This document shows, one piece after another, positions 6,134 to 23,097 of a stretch of 27,026 nucleotides of DNA. The position numbers were made by a program, and so were the translations under genes. Every line of letters starts with the position of its first letter. The first letter of the stretch is position 1. The stretch lies in the IMG/VR virus record IMGVR_UViG_2690316099_000006; one strand, written 5' to 3'. The notes beneath the pieces were generated by a model, which saw only the letters and a program-made list of their open reading frames with translations, had not been told where the DNA came from and made no database searches. This stretch comes from a virus (taxonomy: Duplodnaviria; Heunggongvirae; Uroviricota; Caudoviricetes).

Positions 6134-6989
6134 AGCGCGCCGCCTGTATGTCGCTGATGGCCATATTCTGTGTGGGTTCGATTATCTCCACGCGTTGCAC
6201 ACCGTGCACATGCAGTGCGGCAGCAATGGCGGACAACGCCACGTCCTGACCGATAAGCCCCTGCTCAGCCAGCCACTTCCTGAACGACGATTCAGCCGCA
6301 GCCAGAATAGGTTCGGATTCCGGACCGGGGTAAAAGTACAGTTTTGCATTCAGCCGCCATGTCACGATTCTGGCACTCTGTACGGTCAGGCGGTCGGCCA
6401 CCGGGCGGGTATCCTCTGCATTCAGAACGGCGCGAACGGTATTAAGCAACGCCTCCGTTGCTGTGCCGTCGCCCTCAGTGGACAGGATGGAAACCGTCAC
6501 ATTTGCCGGAGACGGACTGATGGCCCGCGCATCGCGCACCAGACCGCTGGCGCTGCGGGCAAAATACTCGTATGCGCCTGACGGGCCTGCAACACTCAGG
6601 CCGTCATACGCCCGCTGCGCCCGCAGTCTCAGCGAGGTGTCGTTCTCCATCACCACGTCGGTGGTATCCGTTGCCGGAGTGATAACCAGGCGCTTTGTGT
6701 TCATATTGCCCGCGAGGTTGTCCAGGTCTGTTCCGGCGCTGTGGCTCAACATGCAGGCGCGTGCGGCCTCATTGACCCGCTGGCGTAACAGCATTTCACG
6801 AAACGACATGGTTTGAGCGATAACGTTCAGGGGTTCCGATTCCAGTTCCAGTGCGGCGGAGACGACTTCACGCTGTTCGGCGGGATAAGCTGCAATCATC
6901 ATGGCCTTTGTGTCAGCCAGAATTGCCTCAAAGTCAGGCTCCGCGATGATGGCGGGTTCCGGTAACTGGGAAAGGTCAACGGCAGGCAT
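6093..6989 (-). CDS. J: Baseplate protein J
   Basis: 298 aa. MPAVDLSQLPEP...RQRVNEAARA...GLSVAGPSGAYEYFARSA...RPVADRLTVQSA...YFYPGPESEPI... matches P2 J. Confidence 0.85.
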   Translation of the reverse strand: MPAVDLSQLPEPAIIAEPDFEAILADTKAMMIAAYPAEQREVVSAALELESEPLNVIAQTMSFREMLLRQRVNEAARACMLSHSAGTDLDNLAGNMNTKRLVITPATDTTDVVMENDTSLRLRAQRAYDGLSVAGPSGAYEYFARSASGLVRDARAISPSPANVTVSILSTEGDGTATEALLNTVRAVLNAEDTRPVADRLTVQSARIVTWRLNAKLYFYPGPESEPILAAAESSFRKWLAEQGLIGQDVALSAIAAALHVHGVQRVEIIEPTQNMAISDIQAARCESFTISEGGRNE

Positions 6990-13331: not shown

Positions 13332-14168
13332 TCAGAAGTCAGCCAGCTGGTCGGAGGCTGCGCCCGTTGCGGTGAACCGGTTCTGCGGATCGCCGTCCTG
13401 CGTGCGCAGTTTTTCCTTCAGTGCTGTCAGCTCCGTGGTCAGTAAAGTGATTTTCTGGCTGTCCTGCTGATGGCGTGTTTCCAGCGCATTAAAACGGTCG
13501 ATAATGTCGGCCTGTGACGTTGCGACGCTTTCCACCGCTTCCTGAATACGGGAGAAACTGGCGTCATCCGCTTTGCGGCCACGACCAATAATCCCCATTA
13601 CGCGGTTAAACCACTGGGTGCCTTCTTCCTGGCGTTGTTCTGCCATTTCGATGATTTCAGACTCGATGGCTTCGGAGATAAGCGGTGCTTCACCCTGGAT
13701 ACTGTTGAACGTCATCACCGCCTGACGTTGCTGTGCCGTGAATTTCAGGCGCTCAGTGCCCAGGCTTGCCGGGGTGTCGGTCATCGCCAGCCCGACCAGA
13801 TAGGCGCGCCCGTTAACGGAGAACTGCGGGTGCAGTTCGATACTGGAATAGATTTTCTTGCCGTCCGCGACAAGCTGCTTCATGCGCTCGGTCGGTTCGA
13901 TTTCTGCATACAGCGCAGTACGTCCGGCCAGCGGACCTTCCGTAATGTCTTCCGTACTCAGTGCGGTGACATCGCCCATTGCGGAAAATTCGCTTGACGG
14001 GCATGGCGAGAGATAGTGCTCAACGTTCACGCGGGCAGCGTAAACATCCGGGTTGAAGTTCTCGGCGGCTTCACGCAGATGCACCGGACTGATTTCACGG
14101 CCATCAACAGTTGATCCGGAGACAGCCACGCGAAACTTTTTGCGGGATGTCTTTTTTTCATTAGCCAT
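13332..14168 (-). CDS. O: Capsid scaffolding protein O
   Basis: From the internal ATG at 14168: MANEKKTSRKKFRVAVSGSTVDGREISPVHLREAAENFNP... matches P2 O (MAKKVSKFFRIGVEGDTCDGRVISAQDIQEMAETFDP...). Also ...AYLVGLAMTDTPASLGTE... Confidence 0.85.
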   Translation of the reverse strand: MANEKKTSRKKFRVAVSGSTVDGREISPVHLREAAENFNPDVYAARVNVEHYLSPCPSSEFSAMGDVTALSTEDITEGPLAGRTALYAEIEPTERMKQLVADGKKIYSSIELHPQFSVNGRAYLVGLAMTDTPASLGTERLKFTAQQRQAVMTFNSIQGEAPLISEAIESEIIEMAEQRQEEGTQWFNRVMGIIGRGRKADDASFSRIQEAVESVATSQADIIDRFNALETRHQQDSQKITLLTTELTALKEKLRTQDGDPQNRFTATGAASDQLADF

Positions 14169-14322
14169 AGTTTTTGCCCCTCTGACTGGTTCTTCAGTCA
14201 TGATGGCAAAGCGTAACAGGCTGATACAAAGGGCTTTTGTTGTAAGAAAACGGCCAGAACAGGGGGTTAAGGAGAACGGTTTCGCGCGCGGGTAATCTTC
14301 CTGTAATTACTCAGGGGGAGCA
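14169..14322. promoter_or_regulatory. Divergent late-promoter region between O (minus) and P (plus)
   Basis: 154-bp intergenic region between divergently transcribed O and P operons, as in P2 where Ogr-activated promoters sit here. It contains the partial dyad ACAAAGGGCTTTTGTTGT, but I could not place a clean TGT-N12-ACA box. Confidence 0.45.
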
Positions 14323-16215
14323 ATGATTCAGGACGCTTTTGTGCGCCAGCGTGCGCGGCAACTTTACTGGCAGGGTTATCCGCCCGCAGAAATATCACGT
14401 CTGATGGGAATAAACCCGAACACGATTTATGCGTGGAAAAAACGCGACCAGTGGGATGAAACGCCACCCGTGCAGCGTGTCACGCAGTCCATCGATGCGC
14501 GCCTCATCCAGCTTACTGAAAAACAGAATAAAACAGGTGGTGACTTTAAGGAAATAGACCTGCTGACCCGGCAGCTTAAAAAACTGCATGATGGCCAGCC
14601 GGATGCGACGGCCACAGGAAAGAAAGGCCGGGCGAAAAAACTCAAAAATCATTTCACNNNNNNNNNNNNNNNNNNNNNNNNNNNNNNNNNNNNNNNNNNN
14701 NNNNNNNNNNNNNNNNNNNNNNNNNNNNTCCCTGACGCTTTGCAGGGAAGCCGGGATACGTAACAGGATGATCCTGAAATCCCGACANNNNNNNNNNNNN
14801 NNNNNNNNNNNNNNNNNNNNNNNNNNNNNNNNNNNNNNNNNNNNNNNNNNNNNNNNNNNNNNNNNNNNNNNNNNNNNNNNNNNNNNNNNNNNNNNNNNNN
14901 NNNNNNNNNNNNNNNNNNNNNNNNNNNNNNNNNNNNNNNNNNNNNNNNNNNNNNNNNNNNNNNNNNNNNNNNNNNNNNNNNNNNNNNNNNNNNNNNNNNN
15001 NNNNNNNNNNNNNNNNNNNNNNNNNNNNNNNNNNNNNNNNNNNNNNNNNNNNNNNNNNNNNNNNNNNNNNNNNNNNNNNNNNNNNNNNNNNNNNNNNNNN
15101 NNNNNNNNNNNNNNNNNNNNNNNNNNNNNNNNNNNNNNNNNNNNNNNNNNNNNNNNNNNNNNNNNNNNNNNNNNNNNNNNNNNNNNNNNNNNNNNNNNNN
15201 NNNNNNNNNNNNNNNNNNNNNNNNNNNNNNNNNNNNNNNNNNNNNNNNNNNNNNNNNNNNNNNNNNNNNNNNNNNNNNNNNNNNNNNNNNNNNNNNNNNN
15301 NNNNNNNNNNNNNNNNNNNNNNNNNNNNNNNNNNNNNACCGCTGGAACGAGAAAAAGGCCGCGCATAAACGCCAGCGTTTTTCTGTGGACTGGAAAACGC
15401 TGCATAACGGGCTTATCTGCCCTGACCGGACGTGGCGGCAAATTGTCACGCTGGAAGATGTGGTTAATCACGGCTGGAAACACACCGATATTGATGAAAT
15501 TCGTGATGAAAACACCGAAGACGAGTTCCGCAATCTCTATATGTGTGAGTTTGTCCGCGAAGGGGAATCGGCATTTAACCTGAATATCCTGATTGGCTGC
15601 GGTGTTGACGGATACGACGACTGGAAAGACTGGAAACCCTTTGCCCCCCGCCCGATGGGGAATCGTCCGGTATGGATTGGGTATGACGCAAACGGCAGCA
15701 GTGGTAACGGCGACAGCGGCGCTGTGTCCGTGGTGGTTCCTCCGGCTGTTCCTGGTGGTCGTTTCAGAACGGTGGAGACGCGACGCGTTCAGGGGCTGGA
15801 ATTTGAAGAGCAGGCCAGAGTTATTGAAGAGTTCACGTATCGCTACAACGTGGAACACATCGGCATTGATGCGACGGGCGGGCACGGGGATGCCGTCTAT
15901 CAGATAGTGAAACGGTTTTTTCCCGCCGCCATCCCTTACACCTTCACGCTGTCATCAAAACGGTCGCTGGTACTGAAAATGCTGCAAATAATGCGTGCCG
16001 GGCGGTGGGAATACGATCGCGCCGAACGCGAGCTGGTTGCGGCCTTTAACGCCGTGCGTAAGGTGAAAACACCGGGCGGTTTTATCACTTACGAAACGGA
16101 CCGCGCGAGGGGGATCAGCCACGGCGACCTTGCGTGGGCAACCATGCTTGCTGTCATTAACGAACCGATTGGCGGCGAAGGAGAAAACGAGCGTTTCACG
16201 GTTATGGAGTTCTGA
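14323..16215 (+). CDS. P: Terminase ATPase (large) subunit P (two internal masked blocks)
   Basis: N-terminus MIQDAFVRQRARQLYWQGYPPAEISRLMGINPNTIYAWKKRDQWDETPPVQRVTQSIDARLIQLTEKQNKTGGDFKEIDLL matches P2 P. C-terminal half is visible 15338-16215. GGGGGAG lies upstream of the ATG. Confidence 0.85.
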
Positions 16216-17261
16216 TGAGCAGAAAAAATAAAAAAGTGCGCATGAGTTCACGCATTGATCTCGCTGATGCGCTCAGGAAAGAATCGTCGCTCAGTGCATT
16301 CACATTTGATGGTCCTTACCGCCTGACCGGGCATGACCTGCTGGACAATATGTACTGTGCTGATAACGGGCGGTGGTATGAAACCCCGGTGGACTGGTAC
16401 GGTCTGGCAAGAGCTGCCCGGCAAACGTCCTGGCATCAGTCTGCGCTTTACTTTAAGCGCAATGTATTGCTCGGCTGCTATATTCCGCACCCGCTGCTTT
16501 CCCGGCAGGATTTCTCGGCGCTGGCGCTGGACTGGTTTGTGTTCGGTAACGCATTCCTTGAGCTTCGGAGCAATATGCTCGGCGAACCGCTTAAATTACG
16601 GCACGCCCTGGCGAAATACATGCGACGCGGAAGCGATCTTGAATCATGGTGGTATGTGCAGGATGGCAAGGATGCGTTTCAGTTTCGTCCTGGCAAAGTG
16701 TGCCACCTGATGAATCCGGATATTAACCAGGAAATCTACGGCATGCCGGAATATCTTGGCGCATTACTCTCGGCCAGCCTTTCTCATTCGGCGGACATGT
16801 TCAGAAAACTGTACTACGACAACGGATCCCACGCCGGGTGCATCATCTACATCGGTGCAGCGCAGGTAAACCGCGAAAGCATGGACTCCCTGAAAGAAAC
16901 GCTACAGGGGGCACGTGGTGGTGGTGCGTTTAAAAACGTGCTCATTCATGCGCCCAACGGGGGCAAAGAGGGGGTGCAAATTTTGCCGTTCCAGCAGATC
17001 ACCGCAAAGGATGAGTTCATGAATGTTAAGGCGGCATCCCGTGATGATGTGCTGGCTGCGCACCGCGTTCCGCCGCAACTGATGGGGGCGATGCCGGGCG
17101 AAAAAAGTGCGTTTGGTGATGTGGAGAAGGCCGCGCGGGTTTACGCAATTAACGAGCTGATGCCCGTCATGGAGGCCATGAAGCACATCAATGACTGGCT
17201 TGGCGAAGAGGTGATCCGCTTTAACCCTTACGCACTGTTAGACACCCAGCCCACATCCTGA
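16215..17261 (+). CDS. Q: Portal (capsid vertex) protein Q
   Basis: 348-aa ORF translationally coupled to P (TGATG overlap). Position next to the cos region and size match P2 Q. Confidence 0.85.
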   Translation: MSRKNKKVRMSSRIDLADALRKESSLSAFTFDGPYRLTGHDLLDNMYCADNGRWYETPVDWYGLARAARQTSWHQSALYFKRNVLLGCYIPHPLLSRQDFSALALDWFVFGNAFLELRSNMLGEPLKLRHALAKYMRRGSDLESWWYVQDGKDAFQFRPGKVCHLMNPDINQEIYGMPEYLGALLSASLSHSADMFRKLYYDNGSHAGCIIYIGAAQVNRESMDSLKETLQGARGGGAFKNVLIHAPNGGKEGVQILPFQQITAKDEFMNVKAASRDDVLAAHRVPPQLMGAMPGEKSAFGDVEKAARVYAINELMPVMEAMKHINDWLGEEVIRFNPYALLDTQPTS

Positions 17262-17287
17262 CGCGCTTCGCTTGTCTGCTGCTTCGC

Positions 17288-17312
17288 CGGGGCATAAAAA
17301 ATTTATGCCCCG
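17288..17312 (+). terminator. Stable hairpin (11-bp stem, 3-nt loop) 27 nt after the Q stop; possible terminator or cos-flanking structure
   Basis: CGGGGCATAAA-AAA-TTTATGCCCCG. No clear U-tract follows on either strand, so terminator function is uncertain. Confidence 0.35.
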
Positions 17313-17685
17313 ACTCTCCAGCTCCTGTATCAGTCAGATAATTTCACGACGCTTTCCTGCTGATTGCCATCATCGACAGTCAGACTCTTACGCAATCCCA
17401 CCTCGTTGACTGCATATTCTCGCCGTCTCAGTGCGATTTTGACGGCCTTACCTTTCACCCCATCAAATCAAAAGCCCTCACGTCTTTTTCACGCTCAGCG
17501 TGAGAAATACAGCCATTCTGTTGTATCTCTGCGACATCGTTCAGGGAATGCTATTTACCCCCTGAAACGCGGGCTGTTCCCCCGTCACCTGCGCGCAGAA
17601 AAAACGCGTTTTTTTGTGCATGCACGGATCCTTGACGGATCCAGCCGCCACGCGGGCCGGAAGGGCAAAAAGTCGTTCAAAAAAA

Positions 17686-17712
17686 TTGTGCAAATTTGTG
17701 CACTATTGTGCA
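17686..17712. repeat. Three helically phased TTGTGCA direct repeats (10-bp period), near the palindromes GTGCATGCAC and AAAAAACGCGTTTTTT
   Basis: aTTGTGCAaatTTGTGCActaTTGTGCAttt at about 17686, 17696 and 17706, in the noncoding stretch between Q and the accessory operon. Confidence 0.5.
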
Positions 17713-17752
17713 TTTATAAAATCAACTAAAAAACACCTAGTGTGACTTACCT

Positions 17753-17938
17753 CTACCACTCGATCGGCACGTAGTCATTAAGTTCCGGAGACCAATTGCA
17801 CTTTTCACATCTGTGTTTTCCATTCTGGCAGATACATAAACGATAACGGCCACAATGCGGGCACCCATTTTCACCATTATCATAATCACCGAGCGACCAT
17901 TCCTGCATAAGCAGCTCTTCTTCATCATCATTTAGCAT
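17753..17938 (-). CDS. Small Cys-rich zinc-ribbon protein (hypothetical), last gene of accessory operon
   Basis: 61 aa with CPHC...C.C...C..C spacing and an acidic N-terminus (NDDEEELL). Confidence 0.45.
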   Translation of the reverse strand: MLNDDEEELLMQEWSLGDYDNGENGCPHCGRYRLCICQNGKHRCEKCNWSPELNDYVPIEW

Positions 17939-17952
17939 TAATCCCCCTTGAG

Positions 17953-18192
17953 CTATTTACTCTTCTCGGCCCTCAAAATCATACGAGAACCATCATCCAG
18001 CTCCCAATTAATTTCACCGCCTTCTGCCATGACTAGATGCCAAACGAGTTGAGCGGCCTCGTTGGTTACATCGCGACCGCGATCATTTCCTACGCGGCGT
18101 TTTGTTCCGTCTCCTAAGTCACGCATTTTTGCCAATACGATGGTTTTTGATAGCGGTGAAAAACCAAGCTGTAGTCGTGCTGAATTACTCAC
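17953..18192 (-). CDS. Hypothetical protein (79 aa), accessory operon
   Basis: ORF whose start overlaps the upstream gene stop (18189/18192), suggesting translational coupling. No family recognised. Confidence 0.45.
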   Translation of the reverse strand: MSNSARLQLGFSPLSKTIVLAKMRDLGDGTKRRVGNDRGRDVTNEAAQLVWHLVMAEGGEINWELDDGSRMILRAEKSK

Positions 18193-18590
18193 TGGCTGCC
18201 CCCTTTGTACTGTGTTAACTCTTCCTGCTCCTGCATCATGCGATTGACCTGAACGCGTGTGCGTCGAACGGCAAAATTAAATTGAAACATGAGCCGGAAC
18301 ATTTCTGATGCTTCCGTGTGAGCATCACGGATAGGTGACAGGCGGTACAGTTCTGCCTCCGTAGCTTGTTGAATCAATGACAGATCAAATTGAAGTGCGG
18401 GTCTGGTACATTTTGCACATCTGGCAGCAAGCTCCGGTATTAGTCTCTTAACGAAGGTGTTTTGCACCGCTTTGTTGATTTGTGTCTGCATCCAAATCGC
18501 AAATTTCAGCGAACGCATAAGTTTGATAGCCTCGGGCAGCGGCAGATAGATCATGCTGGTAGATTTGGGTGGTTGGTGAACCATCTTCAC
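18189..18590 (-). CDS. Hypothetical protein (133 aa), accessory operon
   Basis: ORF immediately after masked block 18622-19260, same strand as the ParM-like gene. No family recognised. Confidence 0.45.
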   Translation of the reverse strand: MKMVHQPPKSTSMIYLPLPEAIKLMRSLKFAIWMQTQINKAVQNTFVKRLIPELAARCAKCTRPALQFDLSLIQQATEAELYRLSPIRDAHTEASEMFRLMFQFNFAVRRTRVQVNRMMQEQEELTQYKGGSQ

Positions 18591-19260
18591 GGATACGCGA
18601 TTTCGCAGCGTTCGGAAAATCNNNNNNNNNNNNNNNNNNNNNNNNNNNNNNNNNNNNNNNNNNNNNNNNNNNNNNNNNNNNNNNNNNNNNNNNNNNNNNN
18701 NNNNNNNNNNNNNNNNNNNNNNNNNNNNNNNNNNNNNNNNNNNNNNNNNNNNNNNNNNNNNNNNNNNNNNNNNNNNNNNNNNNNNNNNNNNNNNNNNNNN
18801 NNNNNNNNNNNNNNNNNNNNNNNNNNNNNNNNNNNNNNNNNNNNNNNNNNNNNNNNNNNNNNNNNNNNNNNNNNNNNNNNNNNNNNNNNNNNNNNNNNNN
18901 NNNNNNNNNNNNNNNNNNNNNNNNNNNNNNNNNNNNNNNNNNNNNNNNNNNNNNNNNNNNNNNNNNNNNNNNNNNNNNNNNNNNNNNNNNNNNNNNNNNN
19001 NNNNNNNNNNNNNNNNNNNNNNNNNNNNNNNNNNNNNNNNNNNNNNNNNNNNNNNNNNNNNNNNNNNNNNNNNNNNNNNNNNNNNNNNNNNNNNNNNNNN
19101 NNNNNNNNNNNNNNNNNNNNNNNNNNNNNNNNNNNNNNNNNNNNNNNNNNNNNNNNNNNNNNNNNNNNNNNNNNNNNNNNNNNNNNNNNNNNNNNNNNNN
19201 NNNNNNNNNNNNNNNNNNNNNNNNNNNNNNNNNNNNNNNNNNNNNNNNNNNNNNNNNNNN

Positions 19261-20176
19261 GTGGCACCCCGTCCGCGATGAAAGTCGCATTAACTCCGCA
19301 GGCTTCGCGGATAGCGGGTGCCACAATCTCCGCCCCTCCACCGACAACCATCACCCGCCCGTAACCCGAAAAACCCGCCAGCGCGCGGATCACGCGTTGT
19401 TTCAGTGTTTCTTCCTTTTCACGAATAACCGCCATCAGGCTGGCGTAATGCGCGTCATTGTGGATGTGCTGGCGCAGCCAGGCTTCATCATGGCGATGTT
19501 CGATAATGGTATTGGCGATGTGGTGACTGGTGCGCATACCGTTAGTGGCCATCACCGACAGTACGGCATCGGCCATCAGAGAAACGCCTACGTGTGGATC
19601 GCAAAACACCTGGCTGATACCTGCCAGTTGCCCCTGAACCTTTGCCACATCCAGCGTGGTTCCGCCCAAATCCACAATCAGCAGGGATTCAAACGGACTC
19701 ATGTCAGCCAGTGCCTTAAAGCCAGCCGGAATGGATTCAGGCATAACCCGCACGTTACGGATAGTGAATGCTTCGCCGTTCTGGTACTCCACCGGGCGCA
19801 TAACGTTCGCTTTTTTGCGGTTGATGTTGGCCATGTCCGGCTGTGCGTTTGTGTCGAAATACTCGCTCAGTGGCAGGGTGACAACCACATCCACCTCCTG
19901 TGGCGTGATGCCTGATTTGACCAGCGCGTGATGAATGGCAATGACATTTACATCGCTGTACTGGTATTGCGTGTCGGTTGTCTGGACAAAGCGATCGCTG
20001 ACCGGATCAAAACCATAGCGCACGCCATCAAGCATGTAGTTCGCGGGCTGCATGCCACCGAACGGCGCAGACCATTCCGACTTGAAGCTGTTCGGGCTGA
20101 TGGCGTTGCGGCGTTCGCCGTTCTCAGTCCATGCCAGCTTGATGTTGGTGGAGCCGTCGTCGATACAAATTTTCAT
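19261..20176 (-). CDS. Actin-fold ATPase, ParM/StbA family (visible N-terminal ~305 aa; C-terminus in mask)
   Basis: MKICIDDGSTNIKLAW...ISPNSFK...YSDVNVIAIHHAL...NINRKKAN...FTIRNVRVMPESIPAGF...SLLIVDLGGTTLDV...GVSLMADAV...FSGYGRVMVVGGGAEIV carries the actin-fold phosphate-1, phosphate-2 and adenosine motifs in ParM order and spacing. AAGGA lies 8 nt upstream of the ATG at 20176. Confidence 0.8.
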
Positions 20177-20205
20177 GTCGCTTTTCCTTATGTTGATTAA
20201 TTAAT

Positions 20206-20319
20206 CGTTTACGGGATTCTGAAATCCCGTTTTTGCCTGTTTTGTGCGCGCTTCATATATCGCTGCGCGTTTTTTGCTCATTTACGGGATTCGTGAGTCC
20301 CGTTTCTGTCTGTTTTTTG
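20206..20319 (+). repeat. Two ~40-bp direct repeats, each with a hairpin, upstream of the ParM-like gene
   Basis: CGTTTACGGGATTCTGAAATCCCGTTTTTGCCTGTTTTGTG (~20206-20246) and CATTTACGGGATTCGTGAGTCCCGTTTCTGTCTGTTTTTTG (~20279-20319). Each has ACGGGA(T)...(A)TCCCGT followed by a T-run on the plus strand. Confidence 0.55.
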
Positions 20320-23097
20320 TTTCCACTGGTCAGGCCACCCCGCAGCAGGTCTGCTTTGCGGCGGGCGCGTTCAGTGGTTTCACTGATTCTCTGTGCGTGC
20401 TCTGCGTCGCGGATGGCGCGCAGCATGTCAGAAAGCACGGTAACGGGTGTTTTCATGGTGTTCTGGTCCTGCTGAAGTGTGGATGCCAGGCGTGCGGCGG
20501 CTTCAGGGTCTGATGCCCCCAGCTGTGTCAGATAGCTGGCGACCGGGTTATGGCGGATCTCCGTGCTGCTTACGCCATGATTACGGCTCAGGCGCTGCCA
20601 GAGCTGCGTGATTCGGCTGTCCGGGCGGGTATCCGGTTTGCGTACAATTTCAAATCCCTGCGGTGCAATGATGCTGCCGTCAACGTACAGACTGCCGCCC
20701 CGTAACAGGTGCTGCATCTGTTGTTCACCGATATGCAGGCCGAGAGATTCAGCAGACTCCCGCCATTCTTTAGCGAGTAATTCGTGGTTATCAGGCAAAG
20801 GCCGCTGCTGTTTGCGGCTCTGTGTCCAGCTCTGCATTTCATCACTGCTGTTTTTTGCCTGTTTGTCACGAAGCGAACGCATCAGCGCCCGGCGTTCGTG
20901 CCGTTTCAGTGAGCGCATCCATTCATCCACATCAACGCCGTCAGGGAGCTGCGGCCACGGTGCTGGCCGTTCTTCCGGCTGTTCTGTCCCGTTGTTGTCC
21001 GTTTCCTGTACACGGGGACAGTTATTGCCACGAGTCCAAGGGGCGGCAGGGCCGCCCTGAAGGTCAAAACCATTTTCGCGGGCGCTGTCTTCCGCTTCCG
21101 GTTTGCGTCTTACCAGCTTCCAGTTATCCGGATGCGTGCACACACGGGAGGATTCCCCGATGAGTGGTGACCAGATCCCGTAAATCTGTACGCTCTGTTC
21201 GCCGTAATCGTTCAGCTCATCGGCGAGGTCGTAGGCGGTGCGAATCAGGTAGTCTTTGCGTGGAACAAGTACGCCGCCCTGTTTCTCTATGTAGGTGGCA
21301 AAACATCCGGCATCAGCGGCGGCAAGAACCGCATCCATTGCGTCATCCTTCAGCCGTTGCGGGCCTTCCGGGTTGCGTGCCATCTGGCTGGCAAGGCGGC
21401 GCAGTTCACGCCATACCTGGCGGGAGGGGATGCCAAAGAACTGGAACTGGCGGACCCGGNNNNNNNNNNNNNNNNNNNNNNNNNNNNNNNNCCCAGCCGA
21501 TGGCGCGTTCCACGCTCTCGGCCATTGATTTTCCGGTTTCGTGGTCAACGCGTGGCTTGCCCGTTTTCGGGTCGATGCCATCCACGGCGCGGCTGTCCAG
21601 GTTTTTCCCGATGTAGGTGGCGATGTAGCTGGTTGGCGTGCCTTTTGAGCCGTCTACATACTCCGCCTTAAAGCGCGGAGTTATGTCATCGCCCAGCTCG
21701 TGACGATCTTCCTGAATGGCAATATCGCGGGTGTGGGACACAATGGTGTCGATTTCTTCCGGATGAGCAAAGACCATCATATGCCAGTGCACGGTGCCGT
21801 CATGGTGAGGCTCCGCCGTGCGGATGCCATACCAGCGCAGGCCGTCGCGGTTCAGTTTTTTGCGGACCGTCGCAAAAAACGTGTTAACCAGGTAATCGCT
21901 GGAGTCGCGCATTGTGGCCCCGTTCCATTTGGGATTCGGATGACCGTTCTCCGTTGTGGCGTGGTATTTTGACGGGCAGGTGACAGTCAGAAACACCGCT
22001 TTGTCGCCACGGGCTTCGGCCAGAAGTTCCAGCCCCTTCATGGTGGCCATCATTTCTGCCTTACGGTGAACCGGGTTACTTACTCCCGCGTAATACACCG
22101 TCTCGAGATCAATCGTGAACCCGTCTTCATTTTCCAGCATGAAACTTTTCAGGAAATCGCGTGTTTTCTCGCGCTGTGCGCGAAACTCGCTTAACGCGTC
22201 CTGGCTCAGATAGGGCGATGTTTTTCTGGAAACCAGACAGGCGGCGCGAAGTTGTTCTTCTCTCCACTCGCAACGTAACAGCCACAGTTTGCGTTTCCAC
22301 CATTCCGCACAGGTCAGGCGAAGGATTGCGCCCGGCAGCAGTTCTGTGTCCGGTTCGTGCCTCCGGTCTTTGTCTGTTGTCAGTGCGTCATAATGCGGAG
22401 GCATGGCGTGTAAGTGTAACGCCATGCGGGCCAGCATCTGATACGCCTTCAGCGTTACATCCATGGTCAGCTCGCCATCAGTCGCGCCAAAACCATCGCA
22501 GAGTTTTTCGAAGGTGCTGCTGAACATCGCCGCCGTCATGGTGGCCAGCGTCTGTATCTGGTGTTTGTTGAGTTGCGGCAGGTAAAGCAAATCGTCCAGG
22601 CGTTCACGTCCGGCAAGGGAGCGATAACCCGGTGTCAGCCAGTGTCCGTCAGTGCGATCCAGACGTTCGAATATTTTGCGCAGGGTTCCGCGTGCATAGC
22701 GTTCCGCCTGCCAGCTCTTTTTGCCTTTCCGGCGATCGGCTTCCTGTTTTTTGCGCAGGAAGGAGAGGTGGCGAATAAGCGGATCGCGCAGATAGGACGG
22801 CAGCAGGCGCAGCGAGGCCATGGCTTCATCCACCGCGCCGCGTGCCTGTTTTCTGGCGTCTCCTGCCAGTGTGATGGTTTTGTCCTGTTTTTCCTGTGCG
22901 TCCAGGCTTTTATTAATCAGGTTGCCCAGTGGCGTGGCGGAGAACGCCGCATCAGCCATTTCCTGGCGGCGCTCGTTCTCTGCCCGGTGGGCATCCAGCC
23001 AGGAGGAAAGCGCGGATTCAGGAGCGGGGATCCCCGTTCCTTCACGCCCCACTGCGTGGCGCGGTTGTTGCCAGTCCCTGATGTACTCTGCCGTCAT
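20253..23097 (-). CDS. A: Replication initiator (rolling-circle endonuclease) A; frame appears to change across masked block 21460-21491
   Basis: N-terminal 535 aa (21492-23097) has ...MKGLELLAEARGDKAVFLTVTCPSKYH...GTVHWHMMVF...TPTSYIATYIGKNL... typical of P2 gpA. Downstream of the 32-nt mask an open ~400-aa frame continues to 20253 in a different frame. Confidence 0.75.

Follow-up and report, generated by a model that had tools for sequence, protein, structure and literature searches.

A predicted R1-type partition cassette in the backbone of P88-like, P2-type temperate phages

In P88-like (Xuanwuvirus, P2-type) temperate phages, the genes parM and parR are a module of the fixed backbone, not variable cargo of the hotspot in which they lie. 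We found this module in a 27,026-nucleotide stretch of viral DNA, called the window below. We consider it rather likely that this is a type II partition cassette of the canonical R1 type which acts on the extrachromosomal circle of the phage. The presence of parMR in P2-like phages is already published. Rousset et al. 2022 (PMC9122126) reported that about one in four P2-like phages has a putative partition system in this position, and parMR of phage PhiSM has been listed as a "fitness" gene (PMC6456863). This listing and a passing remark in PMC9122126 are all that we found in the literature on ParM function in P2-like phages.

Gene content of the locus

The locus is a string of minus-strand genes (17753-20176), flanked by the portal gene (16215-17261, plus strand) and the replication gene A (20253-23097, minus strand). 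The order is gene A, parM, parR, orf174, a DUF7446 gene, orf61, the presumed cos region and the portal gene, and every visible gene of the string has a good Shine-Dalgarno sequence. The original prediction of a minus-strand operon between cos and gene A was thus correct, as was its placement at the old/tin position, which is the gpA-gpQ hotspot. This hotspot was defined in PMC9122126, where many defence systems were located in it.

Gene A was recognized in the list of open reading frames as a replication endonuclease gene of the P2 gpA family. RefSeq records of relatives call it "replication endonuclease", and the copy in the closest genome that we used (L009, see below) matches the Pfam family Phage_GPA. 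In the window it is split into two reading frames because of a short mask (21460-21491). Homology to a relative that lacks parMR (E06) stops at about 20353-20363, inside gene A, and the last ~33 codons of the gene belong to the par module. The window had also been described as an integrase-carrying prophage, and by eye we could read the N-terminus of a P2-type tyrosine integrase from about 26057 on the plus strand, running into the last mask. A search with Rfam at gathering thresholds detected no RNA family in the window.

A conserved non-coding stretch (17262-17712) that separates the portal gene from the cargo is presumably the cos region. In all relatives, its identity is 94-98% up to 17712-17722, the point at which the cargo starts. 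Its assignment as cos is from synteny only, because the P2 cos 19-mer had no match when up to three mismatches were allowed. Three TTGTGCA repeats (17686, 17696 and 17706), 10 bp apart, close the region. We considered these repeats (17686-17712) as a possible parC and rejected them, since phage 500465-2 shares them, together with the presumed cos region, and has no ParM.

A mask of 639 N (18622-19260) covers part of the minus-strand genes. As a reference for it we used locus L009 of a public genome (GCA_002950135.1, CP026836.1), which is 100% identical to the window at every visible base of 13812-22341. The corresponding L009 stretch is 512 nt long. It begins with the final 44 nt of parM, followed by the complete parR (312 nt); a spacer of 60 nt, which contains a GC hairpin, then separates parR from the 92 nt at the 5′ end of orf174. 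The mask is 127 nt longer than the sequence in relatives, which could have meant an extra gene. We rejected this idea, because the three other masks in 13812-22341 likewise differ in length from the real sequence of this identical genome. Of the one or two genes that had been predicted in the ~640 masked bp, one whole gene is therefore present, and there is no second one. It is also the kind of gene that had been proposed for this place, a ParR-like ribbon-helix-helix gene: in L009 it encodes a 103-aa protein of family PF10784.

The ATPase is, judging from its sequence, a true ParM and a full-length homologue of R1 ParM. Its gene (19217-20176, minus strand) encodes 319 aa, and its visible part (19261-20176) covers residues 1-305. 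Because the last 14 codons and the stop codon are masked, the lower coordinate was counted from the right edge of the mask and is nominal. The protein matches the Pfam domains StbA_N (2.4e-82) and ParM C-terminal domain (4.5e-62), and belongs to phrog_691, annotated "partition protein" in PHROGs. The alignment with the R1 ParM structure (PDB 1mwk) spans the full length, pairing residues 2-316 with 2-318 (47% identity over 315 residues, E = 9e-93). The earlier assignment to the ParM/StbA family therefore holds, and the profiles gave no sign of another actin-fold family. ParM keeps the DDGSTNIK and DLGGTTLD motifs, and its IDDGSTNIKL and LLIVDLGGTTLD align with identical R1 residues. We take these two to be the phosphate 1 and phosphate 2 nucleotide-binding motifs of actin-fold ATPases. 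The gene is under strong purifying selection: pN/pS is 0.077 over 13 alleles, and in a Hafnia relative the protein is 94% identical, as compared to 70% identity at third codon positions.

The parR gene starts 4 nt after parM in L009. Its product matches PF10784 (Plasmid_stab_B) at 1.6e-24 as well as phrog_2515, and had no match in a sequence search of PDB. An N-terminal strand, RRISFYLKP, and a C-terminal tail, NI(R/Q)xLFPE, are invariant in 17 variants (the tail as NIxxLFPE), while the linker varies freely. In the form NIRALFPE, the tail resembles the C-terminus of an IncL/M plasmid ParR, NVQHLFPDDD. In R1-type systems the C-terminal tail of ParR is the part that docks on ParM, a role that this tail may have. 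Thus, by its sequence, ParR has the ribbon-helix-helix N-terminus and the conserved C-terminal tail of a normal centromere adaptor. Like parM, parR is under purifying selection (pN/pS 0.20).

Distribution of parMR and the variable cargo

The junction of gene A and parM occurs in 1372 of 5426 complete E. coli genomes (25%), and is full-length in 1287 of these 1372 (94%). The 1534 places at which the junction was found are almost all chromosomal (1532, versus 2 that are plasmid-borne). The order of gene A, parM, parR, cargo and portal gene is kept in relatives from E. coli, Citrobacter, Cronobacter and Hafnia, and parM and parR are closely associated with gene A of this type. Defence systems in the hotspot are variable in presence among phages that are otherwise close relatives, which parMR is not, given that 94% of genomes with the junction have it full-length. 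R1-type systems are carried by low-copy plasmids and secure their inheritance; here the carrier is an integrating P2-type phage. The original prediction regarded an actin-like ATPase as unexpected in a P2-type prophage. In fact it is present in 25% of complete E. coli genomes, and RefSeq and PHROGs already annotate it.

Among phages, we found this ParM only in Xuanwuvirus, apart from the plasmid-prophage D6, whose protein is 48% identical. Escherichia phage P88, Citrobacter phage PhiSM and other Xuanwuvirus have the same module at the same position, with ParM 96-100% identical and the same upstream repeats. Both P88 and PhiSM can be induced and form plaques. The RefSeq names of its proteins are "plasmid segregation protein ParM" and "plasmid partitioning/stability family protein". 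Plasmids in PLSDB have no ParM above 53% identity, from which we conclude that parMR is not a recent capture from a plasmid. The suggestion of a captured plasmid partition module was right about what the module is. A tblastn search with ParR in 72,556 plasmid records gave 7 matches, each next to a parM that shares 98% identity or more with the prophage gene, and those matches that were inspected are prophage copies. One complete P88-like genome of 34,461 bp, with an integrase, is deposited as the circular plasmid pZ1323PEC0009-2. To count circular forms we also queried the attP junction. No record had it intact, and of 587 places 577 lay on chromosomes, but this query would miss circular records that start at attP and carries little weight.

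By contrast with parMR, the genes after parR change from relative to relative. Differences in these genes between P2-like relatives are also seen in Table S5A of PMC9122126. In P88 they encode a ClpX-type zinc-finger protein and other small ORFs, and in PhiSM a putative membrane protein on the other strand; the window has orf174, DUF7446 and orf61. All three are replaced by other genes in relatives, as is usual for hotspot cargo. They had been proposed as small partners of ParM, which is at odds with the fact that they are swapped freely while parMR stays constant. We conclude that they are independent accessory genes outside the partition machine.

The three genes had been listed as ORFs of 133, 79 and 61 aa. 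Two of these lengths are correct, but the 133-aa ORF (18189-18590) is only the visible part of a 174-aa protein. Its gene, orf174 (18189-18713, minus strand), was completed with L009, and its hypothetical product belongs to the WP_000759755 family. Because the first 41 codons are masked, the upper coordinate was counted from the left edge of the mask and is nominal. Relatives of orf174 form only 8 clusters, in Escherichia and Shigella, and the protein had no match in Pfam, PHROGs, NCBIfam or PADLOC. The next gene (17953-18192, minus strand; GTG start) encodes the 79-aa DUF7446 protein (PF24233, 9.7e-17; phrog_1578). It has 372 relatives across Enterobacteriaceae, and occurs in unrelated phages and on plasmids as well. 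AlphaFold models of both proteins were too poor for a fold search, with a pLDDT of 49.7 for orf174 (5-sequence alignment) and 61.7 for DUF7446 (21 sequences).

The product of orf61 (17753-17938, minus strand) matches phrog_24897 (2.6e-46, function unknown). Its N-terminus is acidic and precedes a Cys-rich zinc ribbon (CPHC...CIC...CEKC), and the protein has a weak match to Zn_ribbon_IS1595. The earlier view of the small ORFs as zinc ribbons fits this 61-aa protein only; the 79-aa one, which had been listed among partners of no recognizable family, is DUF7446. Overlapping start and stop codons, also predicted, were seen between orf174 and DUF7446 only (GTGA, 18189-18192), while DUF7446 and orf61 are 14 nt apart. 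An exact search of genome contigs for the orf174/DUF7446 joint found nothing. The gene orf61 was called in four of the related loci (L009, L010, L016 and L017) and is unannotated in the RefSeq record of another (L001).

Repeats upstream of parM

Two direct repeats of 42 nt precede parM. They are 81% identical and spaced by 73 nt, and each contains a 20-bp palindrome. Copy 1 (20278-20319, minus strand; palindrome at 20284-20303) lies in the 3′ end of gene A, and copy 2 (20205-20246, minus strand; palindrome at 20211-20230) lies in the 76-nt region between gene A and parM, ending 28 nt before the parM start codon. The palindrome pattern has 2 matches in the window, where 0.11 are expected, and is unique to this pair of sites in the whole phage genome. 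The 42-nt repeat is absent from E06, the relative without parMR, so the repeats travel with parMR. In the Hafnia relative, copy 1 is 80% conserved, versus 50% for the flanking coding sequence of gene A, and copy 2 is 83% conserved, with an invariant core GGGATT-N4-AATCCC. The repeats are more conserved than synonymous sites.

An upstream parC is probably present in the cassette, and the two palindrome-bearing repeats are candidates for its halves or for ParR operators. The parC of IncL/M plasmids likewise has two repeat blocks that are 73 nt apart. However, both palindromes resemble intrinsic terminators on the plus strand, antisense to parM. Because the opposite strand looks like ordinary intrinsic terminators, the palindromes may not be centromere sites at all. 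Covariation between the palindromes and the DNA-binding strand of ParR offers nothing to compare, since RRISFYLKP is the same in all variants found.

No sigma-70 promoter was found upstream of parM at the threshold of the tool, and by eye the sequence between the palindromes has only weak promoter candidates (ATGAGC-N16-TATATG). The interval between gene A and parM also yielded no sense-strand terminator. Given that neither a promoter nor a sense-strand terminator was found there, parMR is probably cotranscribed with the early replication operon.

Possible roles of the cassette

The cassette has much in common with R1 ParMRC (StbA/StbB). In addition to the 47% identity over 315 residues, the two ParM proteins share both Pfam domains and the nucleotide-binding motifs, parM is followed by a parR of the same family (PF10784), and repeated DNA lies directly upstream of parM. 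The parC of R1 consists of ten 11-bp iterons in two sets of five, and the array encloses the parM promoter. The P88-type cassette has two 20-bp palindromes instead of 11-bp iterons, an intergenic region of just 76 nt with one repeat copy inside the end of gene A, and no recognizable promoter. Its ParR is shorter (103 aa) and unmatched in PDB. Moreover, the P88-type cassette occurs in an integrating P2-type phage, immediately after a rolling-circle replication gene.

On the reading that we favor, ParR would bind the two palindrome-bearing repeats on either side of the gene A end. The resulting complexes would cap ParM filaments, which would then push copies of the circular phage genome apart. 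This would happen during the extrachromosomal phase in which the A nickase replicates the phage, i.e., after infection and before integration, after excision, or upon induction. Such a phase must be brief, because the element is almost always integrated (1532 versus 2 places). The most likely benefit would be that the phage is neither lost nor diluted while it is off the chromosome.

Such a benefit has its best functional analogue in SrpMRC of the SXT/R391 integrative and conjugative elements (ICEs), an actin-type partition system on a normally integrated element (Carraro et al. 2015, PMC4489591). SrpMRC stabilizes the excised circle, which a nicking enzyme replicates. The P88-type ParM is a close homologue of R1 ParM, whereas the same paper describes SrpM and SrpR as no more than distant relatives of R1 ParMR, and the carrier of SrpMRC is conjugative rather than a phage. 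A close alternative is that the cassette could improve the efficiency of lytic replication, as was demonstrated for AlpAC of the Corynebacterium glutamicum prophage CGP3. AlpAC is induced early and is required for efficient replication of the phage DNA (Donovan et al. 2015, PMC4446434). It too combines an actin-like ATPase with a DNA-binding adaptor in an integrated prophage, and its adaptor binds upstream of its own operon, but it belongs to another actin-like family and a Gram-positive host. If parMR is expressed from the early lytic promoter only, lytic positioning would fit better than stabilization, given that inheritance by daughter cells would then matter little.

A more tentative reading goes further in this direction. 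P2-type phages package from monomeric circles. ParMRC could be a dedicated part of the P2-type replication program and not a relic of plasmid maintenance. It would be transcribed with the nickase A, use the two palindromes as a minimal centromere and spread the monomeric rolling-circle products. TraI of R1 and gpA are both HUH-type nickases. By analogy with R1, in which ParM/ParR are functionally coupled with the TraI relaxase (PMC4949242), ParM and ParR might cooperate physically with the A nickase.

Three other explanations were weighed against partition of the phage circle. P88-like phages might be facultative plasmid prophages, in which ParMRC lets them persist unintegrated for many generations as low-copy plasmids. 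This was suggested in passing by Rousset et al. (PMC9122126), and is consistent with the record of pZ1323PEC0009-2 and with the related StbA/StbB pair of D6, a P1-like plasmid-prophage with ParR downstream of ParM and iterons upstream. However, P88-type phages integrate, as the 1532 chromosomal places among 1534 attest, whereas D6 persists as a plasmid; its upstream region is 266 nt long and contains TCTCA-type repeats. The single phage-sized record stands alone among 72,556 plasmids, the other matches being prophages in large replicons. It still has integrase, cox and repressor, and could be an excised replicating form caught by assembly. The complete P88-like genome also has no annotated theta-type plasmid replicon beside gene A, and in P2 the rolling-circle replication driven by A is part of the lytic program. 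We therefore regard plasmid persistence as unlikely.

It is very unlikely that ParMR and parC serve in exclusion or defence, hindering related incoming phages or plasmids through partition incompatibility or mislocalizing filaments. An anti-phage or exclusion role had been among the original suggestions, and the location in the gpA-gpQ hotspot, rich in defence systems (PMC9122126), would fit, as would the co-occurrence of parMR with defence-like cargo such as an AAA ATPase with an S8 peptidase. The phage-protection assays of Rousset et al. (PMC9122126) took in no StbA-containing arrangements. Against such a role, none of the five proteins had a match in PADLOC, parMR is close to fixation in its lineage, ParR retains every normal feature of a centromere adaptor, and we detected no promoter that would serve expression in the lysogen. 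Finally, parMR could be an inert plasmid remnant that travels with gene A and does nothing for the phage. That no promoter belonging to the cassette itself was found would fit this idea. Nevertheless, it is extremely improbable in view of the low pN/pS of parM, the conservation of the protein relative to third codon positions in another genus, its intact catalytic motifs, and the invariant DNA-binding strand and tail of ParR on either side of a free linker. Capsid capacity, which limits genome size (PMC9122126), also argues against it.

About a quarter of complete E. coli genomes, including O157:H7, O104:H4, O145 and O111 strains, thus carry a plasmid-type actin segregation machine in their chromosome. 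If it stabilizes or positions the phage circle, a principle seen in ICEs (SrpMRC) and in one actinobacterial prophage (AlpAC) would extend to enterobacterial tailed phages, with a bearing on prophage loss, lysogenization and induction in pathogenic E. coli. If instead it belongs to the replication program, it would be the first demonstrated case of actin-based DNA positioning in an integrating phage of enterobacteria, and would account for the chromosomal ParM in a quarter of E. coli strains. For annotation, the P2 defence hotspot has its fixed edge at parMR, which should be taken neither as hotspot cargo nor as evidence of a plasmid.

Gene layout and the masked parR gene

The window covers part of a prophage of P2 type that belongs to the P88 group (genus Xuanwuvirus, family Peduoviridae). 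The region shares 95-99% identity with Escherichia phage P88, with Citrobacter phage PhiSM and with some dozen further members. Gene A, which encodes the replication endonuclease, lies on the minus strand (23097..20253) and is followed there, after a 76-nt spacer, by the parM ORF, which starts at 20176 and enters a mask at 18622-19260. Three further ORFs lie past the mask, the last ending at 17753, and roughly 450 nt of conserved non-coding DNA separate these cargo ORFs from the plus-strand portal gene (16215-17261). The right end of the window carries genes for Cox-like and repressor-like proteins, together with the N-terminal part of a tyrosine integrase of the P2 type.

Using an exact-sequence lookup of the 79-aa protein, we found relatives with the same gene string. 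One of these, L009 (GCA_002950135.1, CP026836.1), is 100% identical to all visible bases of 13812-22341. Comparison with L009 showed that the masks differ in length from the sequence they replace: those at 18622-19260, 21460-21491, 14788-15337 and 14658-14728 consist of 639, 32, 550 and 71 Ns, versus 512, 10, 407 and 73 nt in L009. Therefore, ORF lengths and frames across masks are unreliable; for example, gene A is seen as two overlapping ORFs in the window. The 127 surplus bases that might have accommodated an extra gene in the parM-proximal mask are likewise a masking artefact.

The hidden 512 nt, as read from L009, comprise the last 44 nt of parM, the parR gene, a 60-nt spacer that contains a GC-rich hairpin, and the first 92 nt of orf174. 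The parR gene starts 4 nt past the parM stop codon and has a strong ribosome-binding site. The complete string is A, parM (319 aa), parR (103 aa), orf174, DUF7446 (79 aa) and orf61. A ParR-like gene, which the original prediction suggested looking for under this mask, is thus present, and the 133-aa ORF described in that prediction is only the visible portion of a 174-aa gene whose 5′ end is masked.

The original assignment of the ATPase to the ParM/StbA family is borne out. Its 305 visible residues match the Pfam StbA_N (E 2.4e-82) and ParM C-terminal (E 4.5e-62) domains end to end. The full-length protein from a relative aligns with the sequence of the R1 ParM crystal structure 1mwk over residues 2-316 (E 9e-93, 47% identity), and the phosphate-binding motifs of the two are identical. 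These matches rule out another actin-fold family, and by sequence the ATPase is ParM proper.

ParR matches Pfam Plasmid_stab_B (StbB/ParR family, E 1.6e-24) and PHROG 2515, a "partition protein". Among 17 aligned variants, which are 42% to 89% identical to the L009 protein, the N-terminal strand RRISFYLKP, the helix core and the C-terminal tail NI(R/Q)xLFPE are invariant, while the linker varies freely. The tail is similar to the C-terminus of an IncL/M plasmid ParR. Judged from this alignment, the architecture matches what is expected of a working centromere adaptor.

Position, conservation and cargo

All inspected relatives (from E. coli, Citrobacter, Cronobacter and Hafnia) keep the order A, parM, parR. 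A 1076-nt probe for the A-parM junction has matches in 1372 of 5426 complete E. coli genomes, and the junction is full-length in 1287 (94%) of the matching genomes. By contrast, the gene content from parR to the cos region varies: there can be a ClpX-type zinc-finger protein, an Ead/Ea22-like protein, DUF4760, a membrane protein or nothing. Thus, parMR is a fixed backbone module at the A-proximal edge of the P2 gpA-gpQ (old/tin) hotspot, not cargo.

Selection on parMR is strongly purifying, with pN/pS values of 0.077 for parM (13 alleles) and 0.20 for parR (10 alleles), and the Hafnia ParM has 94% protein identity versus 70% at third codon positions. The lineage is also old and phage-specific. 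No plasmid ParM in PLSDB exceeds 53% identity to the prophage protein. A tblastn search of 72,556 plasmid records with the prophage ParR gave seven hits, all adjoining a parM with at least 98% identity to that of the prophage, and those inspected are prophage copies. In a set of 50,697 phage records, ParM is confined to Xuanwuvirus and the plasmid-prophage D6, where the identity is 48%.

The parR gene itself is a mosaic: variants about 52% identical overall nevertheless share identical first 18 residues and C-terminal tails (L007, a relative's locus, 2501-2815, and alignment). Given that divergent parR variants adjoin ParMs that are 99% identical, the sequences suggest that recombination breakpoints of the hotspot extend into parR. 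We also noticed IS3-family insertion sequences inside gene A in one relative (L015, 674-1830) and inside orf174 in another (L016, 2447-3687), with parM and parR intact.

The small genes orf174, DUF7446 and orf61 are shuffled between relatives and are therefore independent accessory genes with no tie to ParM, contrary to their proposed role as ParM partners. That they lack a recognizable family holds for orf174, which has no match in Pfam, PHROGs, NCBIfam or PADLOC and whose relatives form eight clusters only, in Escherichia and Shigella. It does not hold for the other two. DUF7446 is a small protein widespread in enterobacterial prophages that also occurs in unrelated phages and plasmids, and orf61 (17753-17938, minus strand) encodes a Cys-rich zinc ribbon, PHROG 24897, behind a strong ribosome-binding site. 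The structures predicted for orf174 and DUF7446 were not confident enough to be used. In the RefSeq record of FDAARGOS_943 (L001, about 6354-6539), orf61 is unannotated despite 99% identical DNA.

At the border between conserved cos-side DNA and variable cargo, three exact TTGTGCA repeats are spaced by exactly 10 bp (17686-17712). They also occur in phage 500465-2, which has no ParM, and their fold as a hairpin does not surpass that of shuffled sequence. One possibility is a site for protein binding within the cos region.

A candidate centromere beside gene A

Two 42-nt direct repeats (20278-20319 and 20205-20246) lie 73 nt apart, and one of them falls in the final codons of gene A. Both include a 20-bp palindrome, ACGGGAyT-N4-AnTCCCGT, a pattern found twice in the window (0.11 expected) and nowhere else in one complete 34.5-kb phage genome. 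In strain E06, which has the same gene A type without parMR, homology ends at about 20353-20363 and both repeats are missing; hence the repeats move together with the par genes. Conservation of the two repeats in the Hafnia relative is 80% and 83%, with the core GGGATT-N4-AATCCC unchanged, and exceeds that of both the neighboring A coding sequence (50%) and parM third positions (70%). An IncL/M plasmid parC likewise has two repeat blocks 73 nt apart, but the repeats of the prophage are not R1-style iterons. It is plausible from these sequence features that they are a parC or a ParR operator.

Between the palindromes (20247-20277), a short direct repeat, CGCGCA...CGCGCA, surrounds a conserved CGATATA. 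Both copies read CGTGCA in Hafnia, an identical change in each. The pair could be a hairpin retained through G-U pairs or a binding-site pair around a weak -10 element.

No consensus promoter was found between the two 42-nt repeats, nor any promoter-like site or sense-strand terminator between A and parM. On the opposite strand, each palindrome forms a hairpin followed by a T-run, resembling a terminator for antisense transcription. This and the lack of a consensus promoter between the repeats call for caution over a parC role. A weak terminator-like site after orf61 does not fold better than shuffled sequence does. On the simplest reading, parM, parR and probably the cargo are transcribed last in the early replication operon.

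Possible roles of parMR

In P2-type phages, replication starts at a nick that protein A introduces and yields circular monomers; gpA, like TraI, is an HUH-type nickase. We somewhat favor the view that parMR acts on this extrachromosomal, A-replicated circle. ParR-parC complexes would capture ParM filament ends, and the filaments would push sister phage circles apart. Other integrating elements employ this logic: srpMRC of SXT/R391 stabilizes an excised circle replicated by a relaxase (PMC4489591), and in prophage CGP3, AlpAC is induced early and required for efficient phage DNA replication (PMC4446434). The position of parMR directly after gene A is suggestive because ParM and ParR of R1 stimulate the TraI relaxase (PMC4949242).

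Rousset et al. suggested a stable plasmid lifestyle (PMC9122126), which P88-like phages would maintain via parMR. A single 34,461-bp "plasmid" record would fit this idea, which is nevertheless less likely given an overwhelming integration bias: in complete E. coli genomes, the A-parM junction occurs at 1532 chromosomal places versus 2 on plasmids. A defence role for parMR, which has no PADLOC match, is without support.

The observation of parMR in P2-like prophages is already known, since RefSeq (ParM and "plasmid partitioning/stability family protein"), PHROGs ("partition protein" for both), the PhiSM paper (PMC6456863), which names the gene as a fitness factor, and Table S5A of Rousset et al., with "StbA + Plasmid_stab_B + ..." arrangements (PMC9122126), all record the genes. 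Rousset et al. put the share of P2-like phages with a putative partition system at this locus at about a fourth. Our analysis adds the module's fixed place at the hotspot edge rather than among the cargo, its old, phage-specific and strongly constrained lineage, a candidate minimal centromere that extends into the end of gene A, and the parR hidden by masking.

The plasmid record mentioned (NZ_CP148288.1, whole record) is a complete P88-like genome entered as a circular E. coli plasmid, pZ1323PEC0009-2. Its genes include integrase, cox, repressor, Dam-type methylase, Com and a Hok/Gef toxin. The record could represent either a genuine plasmid state or an excised, replicating form captured by the assembler. 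In E. coli E06 (L020, 966-3458), an AAA-family ATPase and an S8/S53 peptidase stand in place of parMR immediately after a gene A of the same type, and are likely a hotspot defence pair. Other genomes have a comparable AAA plus Peptidase_S8 pair after parMR (Table S5A, PMC9122126).
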